NCBI RefSeq assembly: GCF_964213995.1
Contig: NW_027590198.1
Location: forward strand, 186,001 to 250,000
Source: Mustelus asterias
Taxonomy: Eukaryota
Direction: 5' to 3'
DNA length: 64,000 nucleotides
The position numbers were made by a program, and so were the translations under genes. Position 1 is the stretch's first letter, and each line of letters begins with the position of its first letter. Below, piece by piece: positions 8,625-47,332 of the stretch. Below the pieces are notes generated by a model that worked only from the letters and a program-made list of their open reading frames with translations, was not told where the DNA came from and made no database searches.

Positions 8625-10052
8625 AACAAAGAACAAAGAACAATACAGCACAGGAACAGGACCTTCGGCCCTCCATGGCCGCGCCGCTCCCCGGTCCAGG
8701 ATTGAATCCTGAATCCAGGATCCCCGCCCAATTTTCCAGCCTATCTACATCCTAATATCCTATCCACCGAGCTGTCCCTCACAGCTACGATGCTTTGTTC
8801 ATCACAACCTATTAACTCACCCCCACCCCCCCATTCCAGACCATGTGATCTCCAGGGAGAGGCGAAAACACAGAGTGAAAACCCCAGGGCCAATATGGGG
8901 AAAAAAAAATCTGGGAAATTCCTCTCCGACCCCCTGAGGCGATCGAAACGAGTCCAGGAGATCACACTGGCCCTGATCAGAAAATGCTTCCCAACCCTAT
9001 TCATTTCCACTTCTGCTTTACGAACACCATCTGAATTCCCTGCCCCCGAGACAGGTTCCCAACTATCCGCAGTCTCGCTCTGTACTGGCACCAGCAAGAT
9101 GATCATAGAATGAAGCCTTGAAACGAGAAACAAGGAACAATTAGCCCGCGCCGCTCCCTGTTCCAAACTAGACCACTCTTTTGTATCCCTCCATTCCCAC
9201 TCCGTTCATATAGCTGTCGAGATAAGTCTTAAACGTTCCCAGTGTGTCCGCCTCCACCACCTTGCCCGGCAACACATTCCAGGCCCCCACGACCCTCTGT
9301 GTAAAATATGTCCTTCTGATATCTGTGTTAAACCTCCCCCCCTTCACCTTGAACCTCTGACCCCTCGTGAACGTCACCACCGACCCGGGGAAAAGCTTCC
9401 CACCGTTCACCCTATCTATGCCTTTCATAATTTTATACACCCCTATTAAGTCTCCCCTCATCCTCCGTCTTTCCAAGGAGAACAACCCCAGTTTCCCCAA
9501 TCTCTCCTCATAACCAAGCCCCTCCATACCAGGCAACATCCTGGTAAACCTCCTCTGTACTCTCTCCAAAGCCTCCACGTCCTTCTGGTAGTGTGGCGAC
9601 CAGAACTGGACGCAGTATTCCAAATGCGGCCGAACCAACGTTCTATACATCTGCAACATCAGACCCCAACTTTTATACTCTATGCCCCGTCCTATAAAGG
9701 CAAGCATCCCATATGCCTTCTTCACCACCTTCTCCACCTGTGACGTCACCTTCAAAGATCTGTGGACTTGCACACCCAGGTCCCTCTGCGTCTCTACACC
9801 CTTTATGGTTCTTCCATTTGTCGTGTAGCTCCTCCCTACATGATTCCCACCAAAATGCATCACTTCGCATTAATCAGGATTGAACTCCATCTGCCATTTC
9901 TTTGCCCAAATTTCCAGCCTATCTATATCCTTCTGTCGCCTCTGACAACGTTCCTCACTATCTGCAAGTCCTGCCAGTTTTGTGTCGTCCGCAAACTTAC
10001 TGATCACCCCAGTTACTCCTTCTTCCAGATCATTTATATAAATCACAAACAG
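8625..10052 (-). mobile_element. 5'-truncated young CR1 LINE (RT C-terminus plus long 3'UTR)
   Basis: ORF 9168-9863 [13 protein letters not shown]...; near-identical to the copies at 36.7 and 57.3 kb; aaagaac tail. Confidence 0.93.
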
Positions 10053-24189: not shown

Positions 24190-24263
24190 CACCTCAGATG
24201 GAATTCGAACTCACAATTTCTGGCTGAGGAAGCTAATGCCTTACCCACTAGGCCACTATGGGT
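24190..24263 (-). tRNA. tRNA-Arg(CCT) pseudogene
   Basis: AGTGGCCTAGTGGGTAAGGCATTAGCTTCCTCAGCCAGAAATTGTGAGTTCGAATTCCATCTGAGGTG resembles vertebrate Arg-CCT. Confidence 0.78.
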
Positions 24264-25507: not shown

Positions 25508-25580
25508 GGGCTGGTGGCGCAATGAATGACGCGTCTGACTGCGGATTAGAAGGTTCCAGGTTTGACTCCTGGCTGGCTCG
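25508..25580 (+). tRNA. tRNA-Arg(ACG)-derived pseudogene, anticodon now GCG
   Basis: GGGCTGGTGGCGCAATGAATGACGCGTCTGACTGCGGATTAGAAGGTTCCAGGTTTGACTCCTGGCTGGCTCG; A and B boxes are mutated. Confidence 0.88.
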
Positions 25581-33130: not shown

Positions 33131-34613
33131 TGACGCAAACCTTTGTCTCGTCACTGGACACAGGTGAGGTCCCAGAGGATTGGAGGATAGCTAATGTGGT
33201 CCCGTTATTTAAGAAGGGTAGGAAGGATAACCCGGGTAATTATAGGCCGGTGAGCTTGACGTCCGTGGTGGGGAAGTTGTTGGAGAAGATACTTCGAGAT
33301 AGGATGTATGCGCATTTAGAAAGGAATAAACTCATTAACGATAGTCAGCATGGTTTTGTGAGAGGGAGATCATGCCTCACTAACCTGGTGGAGTTTTTTG
33401 AAGAAGTGACCAGAATGGTTGACGAGGGAAGGGCCGTGGATGTCGTCTATATGGACTTCAGTAAAGCGTTTGACAAAGTCCCTCATGGTAGGCTGGTGAA
33501 AAAGGTTGGATCTCATGGGATAAAGGGGGAGGTGGGTAGATGGGTGGAGAACTGGCTTGGTCACAGAAGACAGAGGGTGGTACTGGAAGGGTCTTTTTCC
33601 AGCTGGGTGCCTGTGACTCGTGATGTTCCGCAGGGCTCTGTATTGGGACCTCTGCTGTTGTGATTTATATAAATGATCTGGAAGAAGGTGTAACTGGGGT
33701 GATCAGTAAGTTTGCGGACGACACAAAATTGGCAGGACTTGCAGATAGTGAGGAGCATTGTCAGAGGCTACAGAAGGATATAGATAGGCTGGAAATTTGG
33801 GCAAAGAAATGGCAGATGGAGTTCAATCCTGATGAATGCAAAGTGATGCATTTTGTTAGAAATAATGTAGGGAGGAGCTATACGATAAATGGCAGAACCA
33901 TAAAGGGTGTAGATACGCAGAGGGACCTGGGTGTGTAAGTCCACAGATCCTTGAAGGTGACGTCACAGGTGGAGAAGGTGGTGAAGAAGGCATATGGCAT
34001 GCTTGCCTTTATAGGACGGGGTATAGAGTATAAAAGTTGGGGTCTGATGTTGCAGATGTATGGAACGTTGGTTCGGCCGCATTTGGAATACTGTGTCCAG
34101 TTCTGGTCGCCACACTACCAGAAGGACGTGGAGGCTTTGGAGAGAGTACAGAGGAGGTTTACCAGGATGTTGCCTGGTATGGACGGGCTTAGTTATGAGG
34201 AGAGATTGGGTAAACTGGGGTTGTTCTCACTGGAAAGACGGAGGATGAGGGGAGACTTAATAGAGGTGTATAAAATTATGAAAGGCATAGAGAGGGTGAA
34301 CGGTGGGAAGCTTTTCCCCAGGTCGGTGGTGACGATCACGAGGGTTCATAGGTTCAAGGTGAAGGGGGGGGGAGGTTTAACACAGATATCAGAAGGACAT
34401 ATTTTACACAGAGGGTGGTGGGGGCCTGGAATGCGCTGCCAGGCAAGGTGGTGGAGCCGGACACACTGGGAACGTTTAAGACTTATCTAGATAGCCATAT
34501 GAACGGAGTGGGAATGGAGGGATACAAAAGAATGGTCTAGTTTGGACCAGGGAGTGGCACGGGCTTGGAGGGCCGAAGGGCCTGTTCCTGTGCTGTATTG
34601 TTCTTTGTTTTTT
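33131..34613 (+). mobile_element. 5'-truncated young CR1 LINE, short-3'UTR type
   Basis: RT motifs YMDFSKAFDKV, VPQGSVLGP and KFADD, with frameshifts; lacks the 440-bp UTR cassette. Confidence 0.93.
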
Positions 34614-35095: not shown

Positions 35096-37192
35096 TCGCT
35101 CCAAGTTGCAGTTCCGGAACAGCTGCAGCTACCACTGCAATAACGCAAGACAGCCAGGAGGCACAAAAAAGAACAGCAAACGGAACCTGCAGTGTCTGCC
35201 TCTATAATTCTCATTAGATGGGCGCTTCGACCAGAGAGACTGGCGGGCACAGCATTCAGTATCCCCACTTTTCAAGGGGTCTGTCTATACGTGTTTCCAA
35301 ATTCAAAAAAATGCTGTTTGCTCTTCACTGCGCCCTGAAATGGCCGAGCACGTCACTCATTGATATCAATCTGCTGCAGAAAAATGAACTGCGTGTGTTT
35401 CCACTGCGGAGGGTGTCCGGAGTGTTGACATAACAGTGAGCACAATTTGATATGAAGGGGTAGTTTGAGGTGATATTGCTTTCCTCTTCAAAGAGCATTT
35501 CAGCAGTTGACCATTCCGTTGTGTCCTGCCGGCTCCATTCGAGCACAAATGGCAGTCATAGTCATTGTTTCGTCACCAGTCCATCATATCAGCTCGGTTA
35601 CAGGAAAATTGGAATGAGTGCATTTAAACTCGGAAGAAGGCATTGATTTAGAATTGAAATAAGGATGAGAGAGATTGTTGCACATGATAGTCTGCCTATC
35701 TGTAATTCTGGAGTCCGAGAAATCCTCTATCAAAGCAGAATTATTGAGCTTCACCCTCTGCACTGCTGATCCAAACAATGCCAAGCAGAAAACAGCGGCA
35801 GCAATCTGGCCGACAACAGAGCAAACAGTGTTGTGTGGCACGATCACCCGTGCTCAATGGCATTGACTTCGAACAGTACTACCAACTCAAGACTGGGCAT
35901 CCATGATGCGTTGTGGGCCATCAACAGCAGTGGAACTGTACTCCAGCACAATCTGCAAACTCATGGCCCGAAATATCCCCCACTCCACCATTACCATCAA
36001 GCCAGGGGATCAACCCTGGTTCAATGGAGGGTGCAGGAGGGTATGCCAGGAACAGCACTACGCATACGTAAAAATGAGGTGTCAACCTGGTGAAGCTATC
36101 AAACAAGACCACTTGCATACCAAACGGCAAAAACAGCAAGTGATAGACAGAGCCATGCGATCCCACTATCAACGGATCAGATCTAAGATCTGCAGTCCTT
36201 CCACATCCAGGCAAGAATGGTAGTGACCAATTAAACAGCTCACTGGAGGAGGATACGCCACAAATATCCCCATCTTAAATGATGGAGGAGCCCAGCACAT
36301 CAGTTCAAAAATCAAAGCCGAGGTTTCTGCAGCAATCTTCAGCCAGAAGTGCCGAGTGGATGATCCATCTCGGCCTCCTCCACTGGTCCCCAGAATCTCA
36401 GATGCCAGTCTCCAGCCAATTCGATTCACACCACGTGTACCAAGAAATGGTTGGAGGCACTGGATACTGTAGAGGCAATGGGCCCTGATAACATTCCTGC
36501 AATAATACTTAAGGCTTTTGCTCCAGAGCTTGCCGCTCCCCAAGCCAAGCTCTTCTCGTACAGTTGCAGCACTGACATCTACCCAACGATGTAGAAATGT
36601 GACGAATTATGTCATGTACACAAAAAGTAGGACAAATCCAACCCAGCCAATTACAAAGAACAAAGAACAATACAGCACAGGAACAGGCCCTTCGGCCCTC
36701 CAAGCCCGCGCCGCTCCCCGGTCCAGGATTGAATCCTGAATCCAGGATCCCCGCCCAATTTTCCAGCCTATCTACATACCAATATCCTATCCACCGAGCT
36801 GTCCCTCACAGCTACGATGCTTTGTTCATCACAACCTATTAACTCACCCCCACCCCCCCCATTCCAGACCATGTGATCTCCAGGGAGAGGCGAAAACCCA
36901 GAGTGAAAACCCCAGGGCCAACATGGGGAAAAAAGAAATCTGGGAAATTCCTCTCCGACCCCCTGAGGCGATCGAAACGAGTCCAGGAGATCACACTGGC
37001 CCTGATCGGAAAATGCTTCCCAACCCTATTCATTTCCACTTCCACGAACACCATGTGAATTCCCTGCCCCCGAGACAGGTTCCCAACTATCCGCAGTCTT
37101 GCTCTGTACTGGCACCAGCAAGATGATCATAGAATGAAGCTTTGAAACGAGAAACAAGGAACAATTAGCCCGCGCCGCTCCCTGGTCCAAAC

Positions 37193-40077
37193 TAGACCAC
37201 TCTTTTGTATCCCTCCATTCCCACTCCGTTCATATAGCAGTCTAGATAAGTCTTAAACGTTCCCAGTGTGTCCGCCACCACCACCTTGCCCGGCAAGACA
37301 TTCCAGGCCCCCACGACCCTCTGTGTAAAATATGTCCTTCTGATATCTGTGTTAAACCTCCCCCCCCCTTCACCTTGAACCTATGACCCCTCGTGAACGT
37401 CACCACCGACCCGGGGAAAAGCTTCCCACCGTTCACCCTATCTATGCCTTTCATAATTTTATACACCTCTATTAAGTCTCCCCTCATCCTCCGTCTTTCC
37501 AAGGAGAACAACCCCAGTTTCCCCAATCTCTCCTCATAACCAAGCCCCTCCATACCAGGCAACATCCTGGTAAACCTCCTCTGTACTCTCTCCAAAGCCT
37601 CCACGTCCTTCTGGTAGTGTGGCGAACAGAACTGGACGCAGTATTCCAAATGCGGCCGAACCAACGTTCTATACATCTGCAACATCAGACCCCAACTCTT
37701 ATACTCCATGCCCCGTCCTATAAAGGCAAGCATGCCATATGCCTTCTTCACCACCTTCTCCACCTGTGACGTCACCTTCAAAGATCTGTGGACTTGCACA
37801 CCCAGGTCCCTCTGCGTCTCTACACCCTTTATGGTTCTTCCATTTATCGTGTAGCTCCTCCCGACATTACTCCCACCAAAATGCATCACTTCGCATTTAT
37901 CAGGATTGAACTCCATCTGCCATTTCCTTGCCCTAATTTCCAGCCTATCTATATCCTTCTGTAGCCTCTGACAATGTTCCTCACTATCTGCAAGTCCTGC
38001 CAGTTTTGTGTCGTCCGCAAACTTACTGATCACCCCAGTTACTCCTTCTTCCAGATCATTTATTTAAATCACAAACAGCAGAGGTCCCAATACAGAGCCC
38101 TGCGGTACACCACTAGTCACAGGCCTCCAGCCGGAAAAAGACCCTTCCACTACCACCCTCTGTCTTCTATGACCAAGCCAGTTCTCCACCCATCTTGCCA
38201 CCTCCCCCTTTATCCCATGGGATCCCACCTTTTTCACTAGCCTACCATGAGGGACTTTGTCAAACGCTTTACTAAAGTCCATATAGACAACATCCACGGC
38301 CCTTCCTTCGTCAACCATTTTGGTCACTTCTTCAAAAAACACCACCAGGTTAGTGAGGCATGACTTCCCTCTCACAAAACCATGCTGACTATCGTTAATG
38401 ACTTTATTCCTTTCTAAATGCGCATACATCCTATCTCTAAGAATCTTCTCCAACAACTTCCCCACCACGGACGTCAAGCTCACCGGCCTATAATTACCCG
38501 GGTTCTCCTTCCTACCCTTCTTAAATAACGGGACCACATTGGCTATCATCCAATCCTCTGGGACCTCACCTGTGTCCAGTGACGAGACAAAGATTTGCGT
38601 CAGAGGCCCAACGATTTCACCTCTCGTCTCCCTGAGCAGCCTTGGATAGATTCCATCAGGCCCTGGGGATTTGTCAGTCTTTATATTCTCTAACAAACCT
38701 AACACTTCCTCCTTTGTAATGGAGATTTTCTCCAACGGTTCAACACTCCCCTCAGAGACACTCCCATTCAACACATCCCTCTCCTTTGTGAATACCGACG
38801 CAAAGTATTCATTTAGGATCTCCCCTACTTCTTTGGGCTCCAAGCATAAGTCCCCACTTTTGTCCCTGAGAGGTCCGATTTTTTCCCTAACAACCCTTTT
38901 GTTTCTAACGTATGAATAAAATGCCTTGGGATTCTCCTTAATCCTGTCTGCCAAGAACATTTCGTGACCCCTTTTTGCTCTTCTAATTCCCCGTTTGAGT
39001 ACTTTCCTACTTTCATTGTACTCCTCCAGAGCTCCCTCGGTTTTTAGCTGCTTGGACCTAACATACGCCTCTCTTTTCTTTTTGACCAGTCCCTCAATTT
39101 CCCTGGTTATCCACGGTTCTCTAATCCTACCCTTCCTATCCTTCTTTTTTTACAGGCACATGCTTGTCCTGTTGCCCTAACAAACGTTCCTTAAAAGACT
39201 GCCACATACCAGATGTGGATTTACCCTCAAACAGCCTCTCCCAATCAAGAGCTGCCAATTTCTGCCTGATCCCAGTAAAGTTAGCCTTCCCCCAATCCAA
39301 CACCTTACCCTTGGGACACCACTCATCCTTTTCCATCACTATCCGAAAGCTAACAGAATTGTGGTCACTATTTGCCACATGTTCCCCAACCAAAACTTTG
39401 AAGACCTGACCGGTCTCATTCCCCAGTACCAGGTCCAGTATAGCCCCCTCTCTAGTCGGGCTGTCTTCATATTGTTCCAACGAACCCTCCTGTACACATT
39501 TTACAAATTCCTCCCCATCCAGAGTCCCTGCCCTCAGCGATTTCCAGTCTATACCAGGGAAAATGAAGTCTCCCACTACAACAACCCTATATTTCCTGCA
39601 CCTATCCAGTATCTCCTGACATATCCATTCTTCCACTTCCCTTGGGCTGTTGGGGGGCCTGTAGTACACCCCCAACATAGTGACTGCGCCTTTCCTGTTT
39701 CTAAGCTCCACCCAGAGTGACTCGTTACACGACTCCTCTGAATTGTCCTCCCTCTGCACCGCTGTAATATGCTCTCCAACTAATACCGCTACTCCCCCAC
39801 CTCTTTTGGCCCCTCCTCTGTCTCGCCTAAAACACTTGTACCCTGGAATATTCAGCTGCCAGTCCTGTCCCTCTTTCAACCAAGTCTCTGTCACCGCAAC
39901 CACATCCAAATTCCTCGTGCGCATTAAGGCCCCAAGTTCGTCTGTCTTACCTGCTACGCTCCTTGCATTGAAGTATAAGCACTCCAGACCTCCAGGCTCA
40001 GTGAGGTCGTCCTCCCCCAGAGTGCTCTTCTTCTTTGCCAGCCTTGTCCCAGCCCCAAGCTCGTCCCCAGCCACCAC
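37193..40077 (-). pseudogene. CR1 ORF2 (apurinic endonuclease-reverse transcriptase), disrupted
   Basis: YFNARS, VTETW, GVYYRPP, VVGDF, SDH; RT motifs in ORFs 38064-38960 and 37242-38033. Confidence 0.92.
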
Positions 40078-40260
40078 ACTTATAGACCTAATAGTTTGAT
40101 CTCCACCCCCCCTGCCATACTAGTTTAAACCCCCCCGAACTGCACTAGCAAAGCTCCCAGCCAGGATATTTGTGCCCTTCCAACTTAGTTGTGACCCCTC
40201 CCTCTTGTACAGGTGCCATCCTCTCCTGAAAACCTCCCATTGATCTATGAAAATAAAGCC

Positions 40261-41139
40261 CTACCTCCTGGACCAGTCCTTTAGCCAGGCATTCGTTTGT
40301 ACTAACTCCCTATTCTTAGCCTCACTGGCACGAGGCATTGGGAGCAGCCCAGAGATGGCCACCCTAGTGACCCTACTTTTTAACCTATTTCCCAACTCCC
40401 TGAATTGCTCTCTTAGGACCCCCCTACTCTTCCTATCTACGTCATTTCCACCAATGTGTATAATGACATCCGTTTCTTTATCTTCCCCTTTTAATATGCC
40501 TCCTTTCCGCTCGGAGACATCCTTGACCCCAGCACCAGGTCGGCAGACTACCATCCTGGAGTCCCGTTCGCCCCCACAGAATCGCCTGTCTGTGCCTCTA
40601 ACTGATGCATCCCCCACCACTATCGCTCTCCTAACCCCTCTCTTCCCTTTCCGGGCCACAGAGCCTGACTGTGTGCCAGTGACCTGGTCACTGTGTCTTA
40701 CCCCTGGAGAGGCACACTCCTCCACACTATCTAAAACAATGTACCTGTTTTGGAGTGGGTCAACCACAGGTGACCCCTCTTCTAACTTTTCACTCCCCTC
40801 CCCTCTCACACTTGTCACCAAGCCCTTCCTATTTTGAGAGACCACCACTGGAGTCCTCCCTTGTACTTTACCCTTCTGCCCTTTACTCCTCCTAACTGTG
40901 ACCCACGTGTCATTCTCCCGATGCCCCGGTGTAACTAGTTGCCTATAAGTGCTGTCGATTTTTCTCCCATTTTCCCTGACTAGACTAAGGTCAGCGATCT
41001 GCAGCTCCAGTTCCCTGACACGGTCCCTCAAGAGCTGCAGTTCCACGCACCTGGCACATATGTGAACCTCTGGGAAGCTAGGTGTTTGCAGGAACTCCCA
41101 CATCCCACATCTGAAGCACTGAACTGGCCGATCACTCAT
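40261..41139 (-). CDS. CR1 ORF1p (Zn-finger, coiled coil, SGNH esterase-like domain)
   Basis: CFRC...CARC, heptad Leu run, AIVVGDASVRG...IIHIGGND; possibly prematurely terminated. Confidence 0.85.
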   Translation of the reverse strand: MSDRPVQCFRCGMWEFLQTPSFPEVHICARCVELQLLRDRVRELELQIADLSLVRENGRKIDSTYRQLVTPGHRENDTWVTVRRSKGQKGKVQGRTPVVVSQNRKGLVTSVRGEGSEKLEEGSPVVDPLQNRYIVLDSVEECASPGVRHSDQVTGTQSGSVARKGKRGVRRAIVVGDASVRGTDRRFCGGERDSRMVVCRPGAGVKDVSERKGGILKGEDKETDVIIHIGGNDVDRKSRGVLREQFRELGNRLKSRVTRVAISGLLPMPRASEAKNRELVQTNAWLKDWSRR

Positions 41140-41313
41140 ACCTGCCCTTATCCTTTATAGGGTTGGGTAAAAGATAACTAGCCTTGCCTCGTCCTTACAG
41201 CCTAAGCCCTGTGAGCCAAAGCCCTTATAGTGCACACTCTGCTACCCACTCACTCCACTGCCCGCTCCCGACGCTGCCCGCTGTATAGTGCAGCCGGCTT
41301 TTTCATGCTCCCG

Positions 41314-41740
41314 TCGAACCCCCCAGGTAACTGCCTTTTATACTAAGACTCAACCTCCCAGAATCCCCTTCAGCTGACCTCACTTCCTCAATTCAAAACC
41401 CTGAAAAAAGCCCGCTAGGAATACCCTTAAATGAATAAATGAATAATTAAATCACTTCTTAGCTTACTCTCAGCTCTCCTGCTAAGACTCTCTCCCCTAG
41501 TCTCACTCCAGTTAAACAAAGAGATCGAACCCCCCAGGTAACTGCCTTTTATACTAAGACTCAACCTCCCAGAATCCCCTTCAGCTGACCTCACTTCCTC
41601 AATTCAAAACCCTGAAAAAAGCCCGCGAAATATACTAGGAATACCCTTAAATGAATAAATGAATAATTAAATCACTTCTTAGCTTACCCTCAGCACTCCT
41701 GCTAAGACTCTCTCCCCCAGTCTCACTCCAGTTAAACAAA
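41314..41740. repeat. Two tandem ~210-bp units in the CR1 5'UTR
   Basis: tcgaaccccccaggtaactgcc...gttaaacaaa at 41314-41520 and 41525-41740. Confidence 0.92.
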
Positions 41741-44851: not shown

Positions 44852-44924
44852 TAAAGGCTCGAGGGCTCGAACCCACGACCCTAAGATTAAGAGTCTCATG
44901 CTCGACCGACTGAGCTCGCCGGGC
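44852..44924 (-). tRNA. tRNA-Lys(CTT) pseudogene, 3' acceptor strand lost
   Basis: GCCCGGCGAGCTCAGTCGGTCGAGCATGAGACTCTTAATCTTAGGGTCGTGGGTTCGAGCCC. Confidence 0.85.
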
Positions 44925-47259: not shown

Positions 47260-47332
47260 GGCTCCATAGCTCAGTGGTTAGAGCACTGGTCTTGTAAAAC
47301 AGCGGTCGCGCGTTCAATTCTCGCTGGAGCCT
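47260..47332 (+). tRNA. tRNA-Thr(TGT), near-intact
   Basis: GGCTCCATAGCTCAGTGGTTAGAGCACTGGTCTTGTAAAACAGCGGTCGCGCGTTCAATTCTCGCTGGAGCCT; perfect acceptor stem, one mismatch each in the anticodon and T stems. Confidence 0.9.

Follow-up and report, generated by a model that had tools for sequence, protein, structure and literature searches.

A structured RNA module in the 3' UTR of a young CR1 subfamily, likely copied from clustered host loci and with a predicted poly(A)-clamping core

A young subfamily of CR1 retrotransposons carries in its 3' UTR a cassette of about 440 nt that was likely copied from the 3' ends of clustered, apparently non-coding host loci. On the LINE-sense strand the core of this cassette is predicted to form a double-ENE-like clamp on poly(A). 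The full explanation, that CR1 captured a piece of host RNA whose core would serve as a poly(A)-clamping stability element for the LINE transcript, is a model to which we give roughly even chances. An earlier note on this DNA had proposed an acquired functional RNA module travelling with the LINE. The comparisons below describe an acquired and selected module: its copies form one clade, compensatory changes are found, and stems are kept while the flanks drift.

In the window (the whole stretch of DNA analysed, 64 kb) the cassette is present three times on the minus strand, at 8699-9143, 36726-37167 and 57371-57810. Sequence comparison and repeat search place these copies, of 445, 442 and 440 nt, between 22-bp direct repeats, as had been described. 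The repeat occurs eight times in the window and not once in 100 shuffles. It is 23 bp long when a common preceding A is counted, and its left and right copies differ by a single C/T. The repeat search also confirmed that the sister copies at 34.5 and 55.0 kb have one repeat and no cassette. These lone repeats lie at 34543-34564 (the element is on the plus strand, the repeat itself is also given as minus) and at 55022-55043 on the minus strand. The copy at 8699-9143 lies in a 5'-truncated CR1.

The 36.7-kb element is read on the minus strand throughout. Its CR1 3' terminus (36653-36703), a terminal stem-loop region with a (TTCTTTG)-type repeat tail, is common to cassette-plus and cassette-minus copies. 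Next come the downstream, tail-side copy of the direct repeat (36704-36725), the non-host end of the cassette (36726-36789), the part homologous to the 3' region of clustered host loci of family A (36790-37151, 81–90% identity), and the upstream, ORF2-side copy of the repeat (37168-37189). ORF2 (37242-40119) encodes an APE endonuclease and RT (PF03372/PF14529, PF00078) in three open pieces; its split into three frames was noted at 40244-40280 and 39136-39150. ORF1 (40261-41154) has weak SGNH/GDSL esterase-like matches below the cut-off. ORF1 with an APE-RT ORF2, a 3' stem-loop, a microsatellite tail and 5' truncation are the CR1 features given in PMC4316615. The clade label follows from these ORF, tail and truncation features.

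Genome-wide, a pattern for the core matched 9,400 places in 3.68 Gb, and its reversed control none. Thirty matches taken in genome order all lie in the same CR1 subfamily, at 94–98% identity. The earlier note had asked for copy number and age to be compared between elements with and without the cassette. Exact junction patterns gave at least 10,672 cassette-plus and at least 10,642 cassette-minus copies, both of them lower bounds, with a greater undercount for the older cassette-minus group; similar copy numbers were reached by the cassette-free sister elements. A tree was made from 400 nt of shared body in copies sampled from the start of contig 1 and from the window. In this tree, whose bootstrap is not fully settled, all 17 cassette-plus copies form one clade (support 100/99, mean pairwise distance 1.2%) nested among 22 older cassette-free copies (6.5% within). 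Loss of the cassette by recombination between the repeats was considered and not seen: plus-type diagnostic bases are present in 0 of the 22 cassette-free copies. Because the plus copies form a single young, nested clade and no minus copy has plus-type bases, the cassette was likely gained once, and recently, in the CR1 lineage.

The claim that the whole ~440 bp is highly structured did not survive comparison with shuffles. The interval 36704-37189 folds no better than they do (z = -0.39 and -0.37), and only the core of ~135 nt beats chance (36860-37005, z = -3.09 on the plus and -3.37 on the minus strand). The nested core helices listed before are present and are predicted on both strands, with substitutions in cccaga in the 8.7-kb copy and in cctctcc in the 57.4-kb copy. 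The satellite hairpin cgagac/gtctcg fails in the 36.7-kb copy itself, which reads gtcttg. On the minus strand, folding and alignment give a core (36867-37001) made of a closing helix P1 (36986-37001 with 36867-36881), a three-way junction and a rod of P2, loop, P3, loop and P4. The alignment places a side hairpin P1b at 36957-36973, of the form GAUY-G-CC-loop-GG-RGUY with an invariant U.G pair. Sequence and fold define two U-rich internal loops (36891-36949), all on the same strand. The lower loop sets AAUUU (36945-36949) opposite UUUUCG (36891-36896), and the upper sets a U-tract (36929-36938) opposite UUUU-CAC (36903-36909). P3 pairs 36897-36902 with 36939-36944, P4 pairs 36910-36914 with 36924-36928, and the apical loop (36915-36923) has a conserved UUGGC. 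RNAalifold, unaided, predicts the same junction together with P1b, P2, P3 and some of P4. No named family had been recognised before, and in Rfam the cassette has no match at gathering score (a lone chance match, E = 8.7, appears in a scan at E ≤ 10); the module does resemble a double ENE.

Conservation follows the predicted pairing. Between the window copy and eight host-A copies, 0–1 of 73–76 paired sites differ, compared with 3–6 of 52–58 unpaired core sites and 37–45 of 215–227 flank sites (16–21%). Between the host families the core is 88–97% identical and neighbouring bins are mostly 54–81% identical, a few flanking bins scoring lower owing to a 100-nt insertion in family B. An alignment of 16 rows, equivalent to about four independent lineages (all 31 host copies being paralogs within two families), shows pairing of P1b, P2 and P3 in 98.9% of 282 cells against 39–61% in slid controls, with both sides changed in 5 of 19 pairs. 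The pair-count measure is not beyond chance, 54 of 500 shuffles reaching it. Within the young clade (74 copies), shared variants affect 1 of 76 paired sites and 18 of the 366 remaining sites (p = 0.13), which is only suggestive of selection on the stems there; constraint may have acted in an unseen donor. The GCC/GGC pseudoknot proposed earlier is compatible with the alignment, in which 46 of 47 cells pair at the three central pairs and one A-U/C-G change falls at the fourth, but it competes with a local hairpin, whose top accommodates the GCC bases of P1b about as well as pairing with the apical loop does.

The earlier note implied a working strand antisense to the LINE, and here the data favour the opposite choice. 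On the U-rich, LINE-sense (minus) strand the modelled pairs include 19 G.U cells and 1 C.A cell, 16 of the 19 coming from one invariant pair. A master-lineage variant in P2 at 36954 (11 of 74 copies) makes a G.U pair only on this strand, where P1b of the homolog on contig C18 is capped by cUUCGg. Every host copy (31 of 31) has an AATAAA and, after it, a GU-rich tract no more than 200 nt 3' of the core; the opposite strand has this in 0 of 31. Of these copies, 29 had been found without asking for the signal and two through a pattern containing it. The signal sits ~140–150 nt past the core in the host loci, and likewise follows it at C18 and at the C4 locus (L253). Fold z-scores fail to separate the strands, and one host-B copy folds better on the plus strand (-4.53 vs -2.88). 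Because of the G.U pairs, the cUUCGg loop and the poly(A) signals we favour the LINE-sense strand, on which the A-rich joiners described before would be U-rich internal loops.

Relatives of the cassette were found in the host genome outside CR1. A search that left out the young family's spacer gave 18 matches, 17 of them in a tandem array on C18 and one a young-family variant. The C18 query found 16 weaker places, namely 14 young-family copies, a decayed copy (L149) and a chimera (L147). The chimera led to clustered loci without a CR1 tail, which comprise host family A (C2, C3, C9, C14, C16, C23 and C1761) and host family B (C17, C22, C72 and small contigs). One further host locus with the motif is on C4. 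There are at least ~40 clustered, apparently non-coding units, spaced 12–60 kb apart and ending in the structured core and AATAAA. On C16 they are at 2.07, 6.3–6.5, 11.1, 18.2 and 41.2 Mb, and others are on the remaining contigs named for the two families and on C665, C833, C2031 and C4342 (loci L163-L191 and L230-L259).

The host units have kilobases of sequence in common, interrupted by repeats, and in family B tandem repeats of 0.7–1.5 kb lie upstream of the core. No Pfam match was obtained for 8 frames tested from these units, and six blocks common to them have stops in all frames; with no coding frame found, we call the units apparently non-coding. They could be lncRNA or piRNA-precursor genes. 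A scan with RNA models returned miRNA-type hairpin matches below threshold and a tRNA-like match at C18 only. About 6 kb upstream of the core, a block of 875 nt (L194 2786-3657, C16 18218786-18219657) is 93.7% identical between C16 and C14 units. GACATCA words recur in it, its minus strand has a TATA-like stretch, and it may be the promoter. At L199 (C17 13.732-13.742 Mb, minus strand) short gag-like open frames were seen by eye 3' of the motif, which suggests ERV remnants in family-B units. Contigs of run X1 (56.5 million letters, data kind not on record) are long and near-identical across L193 7123-9165 and leave most of the unique DNA flanking that interval uncovered, while X2 and X4 cover all bins. 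X1 contigs contain no splice-type joints on L194, and neither observation is taken as evidence here.

Nucleotides 17–378 of the cassette (~360 of 442 nt) align to host family A at the 81–90% identity given above. In a midpoint-rooted tree of 37 rows (5 were dropped because an anchor was missing), the CR1 copies join host A (99/98) at the end of a long branch (0.05), and L147 lies inside host B (95/87). In L147 (740-1850, C15 57.78 Mb) ~1 kb of family-B sequence runs to a point shortly before its poly(A) signal and is joined there to a CR1 tail; the chimera is a lone copy among the 40 matches scored. Since the CR1 cassette is nested in host A and L147 in host B, capture from host-type RNA likely occurred twice, by template switching. 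Within the tail-side 64 nt of the cassette, 25 nt (36753-36777) match ORF2 of the same element (37930-37954) at 88% identity. This piece fits RT template jumps and is a putative template-jump scar. The cassette ends have no terminal repeats and no poly(A). Genome searches found no host donor above 90% identity to the cassette, even though the capture looks recent. Among candidates for a closer donor, a search allowing a short gap gave two family-A loci and a second search one already-known family-A locus. With none above 90%, the immediate donor is unseen and is possibly another, rarer element. LINE template-switch chimeras of the U6-L1 type join a LINE 3' tail to part of a cellular RNA, and L147 has the same tail-to-cellular-RNA fusion. 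In contrast to such chimeras, the cassette lineage would have switched back to the LINE template; it kept its autonomy and gave rise to a subfamily with >10,000 copies.

The array on C18 (15.2-16.05 Mb; L062-L078, L081-L086) comprises 17 copies spaced ~25–160 kb apart, mostly 30–45 kb; they form two inverted blocks, and long tracts of simple repeats are present. An ERV-like element with two ~1.26-kb LTR-like repeats of 98% identity lies in one unit. Only the core of the C18 copies aligns to the cassette, at ~74%, and folding of the C18 homolog does not exceed chance (z = 0.27 against shuffles). The search for homologs and covariation that had been proposed gave compensatory changes in homologs and extended the fold to amniote-like metagenome loci. 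Of 49 pattern matches in metagenome contigs, four carry the full fold, and a model made from shark-type sequences alone (11 of them) gives these four 36–42 bits. The other 45, at ≤11.8 bits, were rejected as chance.

The four metagenome loci (L102, L103, L114 and L144) are in an amniote-like, multi-copy, GC-rich repeat, and not in a CR1; at L102 a separate amniote-type CR1 ends ~750 nt upstream and the motif is outside it. They have one loop per hairpin and conserve the apical UUGGC and the junction hairpin. The motif is followed by one or two progressively decayed U-rich-loop hairpins (one U-rich loop and then a further such hairpin at L102). These duplicates keep the U-rich loop and P2, and have lost the junction and apical loop. 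No AATAAA occurs within 520 nt of the four loci (L102 ends 280 nt downstream), and L103 found no match in the shark's own genome. Viral contigs gave two pattern matches, both rejected as lying in prokaryotic coding DNA, and no CR1 ORF2 relative; prokaryote genomes gave one pattern match, set aside unscored by the model. A similar motif may be present in turtle and frog CR1 tails.

The sense-strand core fits the ENE description of U-rich internal loops on a G-C rod, as given in section 3.4 of PMC7583470 and section 9 of PMC13541005. Shark-type copies have two such loops around a P3 of 5–6 bp, as in a double ENE (dENE). Their lower loop has only 3–4 U on the 5' side, two A and a 1–2-nt YG bulge, and a 3-nt bulge is in the upper loop. 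By inspection, the features of the dENE lower domain (a 3–4-nt bulge and an adenosine triad) are absent from the lower loop; we therefore call the core dENE-like and not a TWIFB1-type dENE. The three-way junction and the conserved apical UUGGC go beyond what a plain ENE explains. As to position near a 3' end, AATAAA follows the core in the host loci. Inside CR1 there is no signal: the 520 nt 3' of the core contain neither AATAAA nor ATTAAA, and the A-tracts that follow the core in the genome are no longer than 4. CR1 RNA would therefore have to obtain its tail at a host signal lying downstream.

The dENEs of plant and fungal transposons such as rice hAT TWIFB1, as the reviews describe them, share with the core two U-rich loops split by a short duplex, G-C flanking stems and a transposable-element RNA; they are near a 3' end, where the core would also lie. 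Here, in contrast, the carrier is a non-LTR element of an animal, the 3-nt bulge (CAC/AAC) comes after the upper and not the lower U-tract, the lower loop is AAUUU/UUUUYG without the adenosine triad, and the rod stands on a three-way junction whose side hairpin is conserved. In addition, the LINE itself has no poly(A) signal, and the relatives found are host loci. The KSHV PAN ENE has a U-rich loop between G-C stems, comparable to the C18 upper loop (UUUUU-CCUG ... CAGG-UUUUUU-G). The same canonical loop is seen in the duplicated metagenome hairpins, and host copies are shortly upstream of AATAAA. Our case differs from PAN in its cellular and retrotransposon setting, second loop and junction, and there is no Rfam or sequence match. 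In PMC12501189, the ENE of the Arabidopsis LTR retrotransposon Evade/Copia93 raises RNA stability and transposition; as here, a fold-back brings together four U-tracts in the 3' UTR of a retrotransposon. Evade, an LTR element, has a poly(A) site of its own, whereas the function predicted here is in a CR1 LINE. The MALAT1/MEN-beta triple helix is a 3' stability element of vertebrate non-coding RNA and also has a U-rich internal loop. Unlike it, the core is followed by no encoded A-rich tract (within the element, A runs 3' of the core reach 4 at most) and by no tRNA-like structure, with no tRNA-like or mascRNA match at the cassette or beside the C18 motif; its loops have no interrupting C/G, and AATAAA follows in host copies.

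The passages of PMC4316615 on CR1 3' UTRs describe only a terminal hairpin and a microsatellite, and its supplement PDF showed no copy of the motif. A search of mostly open-access literature listed no paper on an ENE or other structured insert in a CR1 3' UTR; the element may already be among the 200+ ENEs of the Tycowski 2012/2016 or Torabi 2021 surveys. The review sections covered here (PMC7583470, PMC13541005) place ENEs in viruses, MALAT1/MEN-beta, plant, fungal and slime-mould transposons and stickleback retroviruses, and name no animal LINE.

Under the explanation given at the outset, the RT would first have copied the tail of CR1 and then, after a jump, a short stretch of CR1 ORF2 sequence. 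From there it would have switched to a family-A-like host RNA, at a point shortly before the poly(A) signal of that RNA, and then gone back to CR1 and re-copied 22–23 nt, which would have left the direct repeat. In the transcript the upper loop, and perhaps the lower, would form the predicted U.A-U triples with the poly(A) tail. That tail would be added at a signal downstream of the insertion, and the read-through CR1 RNA is predicted to be protected from deadenylation, to decay more slowly and so to provide a larger supply for retrotransposition.

The core may instead be an ENE-like stabiliser in host transcripts and a neutral passenger in a CR1 master that succeeded for other reasons. We consider this rather unlikely: the CR1 without poly(A) signal or A-tract, the non-significant selection within the clade, the cassette-free sisters equal in exact counts and the chimera that remained single would all suit a passenger, but the stems stayed unchanged along the long branch to the CR1 cassette and the capture included the whole core. 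A similarly small chance goes to a sense-strand fold with another function, such as a protein-binding, nuclear-retention/export or 3'-processing element in which the GCC of P1b pairs with the apical GGC, in the same RNA or in a second one, and the U-rich loops act as hinges. The near-complete GCC/GGC pairing and the change at its fourth pair argue for such a fold, as do the apical UUGGC and junction hairpin conserved out to the metagenome loci. However, the same C's form the local hairpin with equal support, a rigid rod would, from the geometry we infer, hold the loops apart, and the duplicated metagenome hairpins retain the U-rich loop and P2 and drop the junction and apical loop.

That the module is a self-cleaving ribozyme, or another structured RNA acting antisense to the LINE, is in our view very improbable. 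The wobble pairs, the UUCG loop and the poly(A) signals suit the other strand, even though the plus strand folds nearly as well, one host-B copy folds better on it and A-rich joiners are typical of structured RNAs. The ribozyme-like character suggested in the earlier note found no Rfam match and, against consensus motifs, no hammerhead, HDV-type or other known ribozyme core by eye. Just as hard to credit is a functionless insert, be it a common nested transposon or a random transduction, that duplicated 22 bp of its target. The size of the direct repeat is compatible with a target-site duplication and the whole cassette is not unusually structured, yet its ends lack terminal repeats and poly(A), and its relatives are clustered units with common kilobases and no Pfam match in the frames tested. 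The core is conserved far beyond its flanks and covaries, and the stem-versus-flank contrast largely refutes such an insert. Transduction had been named as a refuting case. As regards capture it fits, the cassette looking like captured host RNA; as regards randomness it does not, the captured piece being a conserved structured element.

A bolder reading, which we regard as possible but doubtful, is that jawed vertebrates carry an ancient, undescribed three-way-junction ENE class that stabilises clustered non-coding host RNAs and that CR1 would have repeatedly stolen by template switching and turned into the LINE's weapon against deadenylation, fuelling the latest burst, of >10,000 copies, in the genome studied. 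If the fold does clamp poly(A), it would be a new vertebrate ENE architecture conserved from shark-type to amniote-type DNA, and would point to a host non-coding gene family using an ENE-like element. The cassette-plus and cassette-minus sister LINEs, ~7% apart, would then be a natural paired experiment, asking if LINE amplification is limited by RNA stability and how CR1 transcripts without a poly(A) signal end and stay protected.

Two further observations concern the window. Upstream of ORF1 in the near-full-length CR1, two near-identical tandem units of ~190 nt (41310-41740) are possibly a duplication of 5' UTR monomers. Five tRNA-like matches exceed the Rfam threshold (24190-24262, 25508-25580, 44861-44916, 47260-47332 and 50154-50234) and are probably tRNA pseudogenes or SINE heads.
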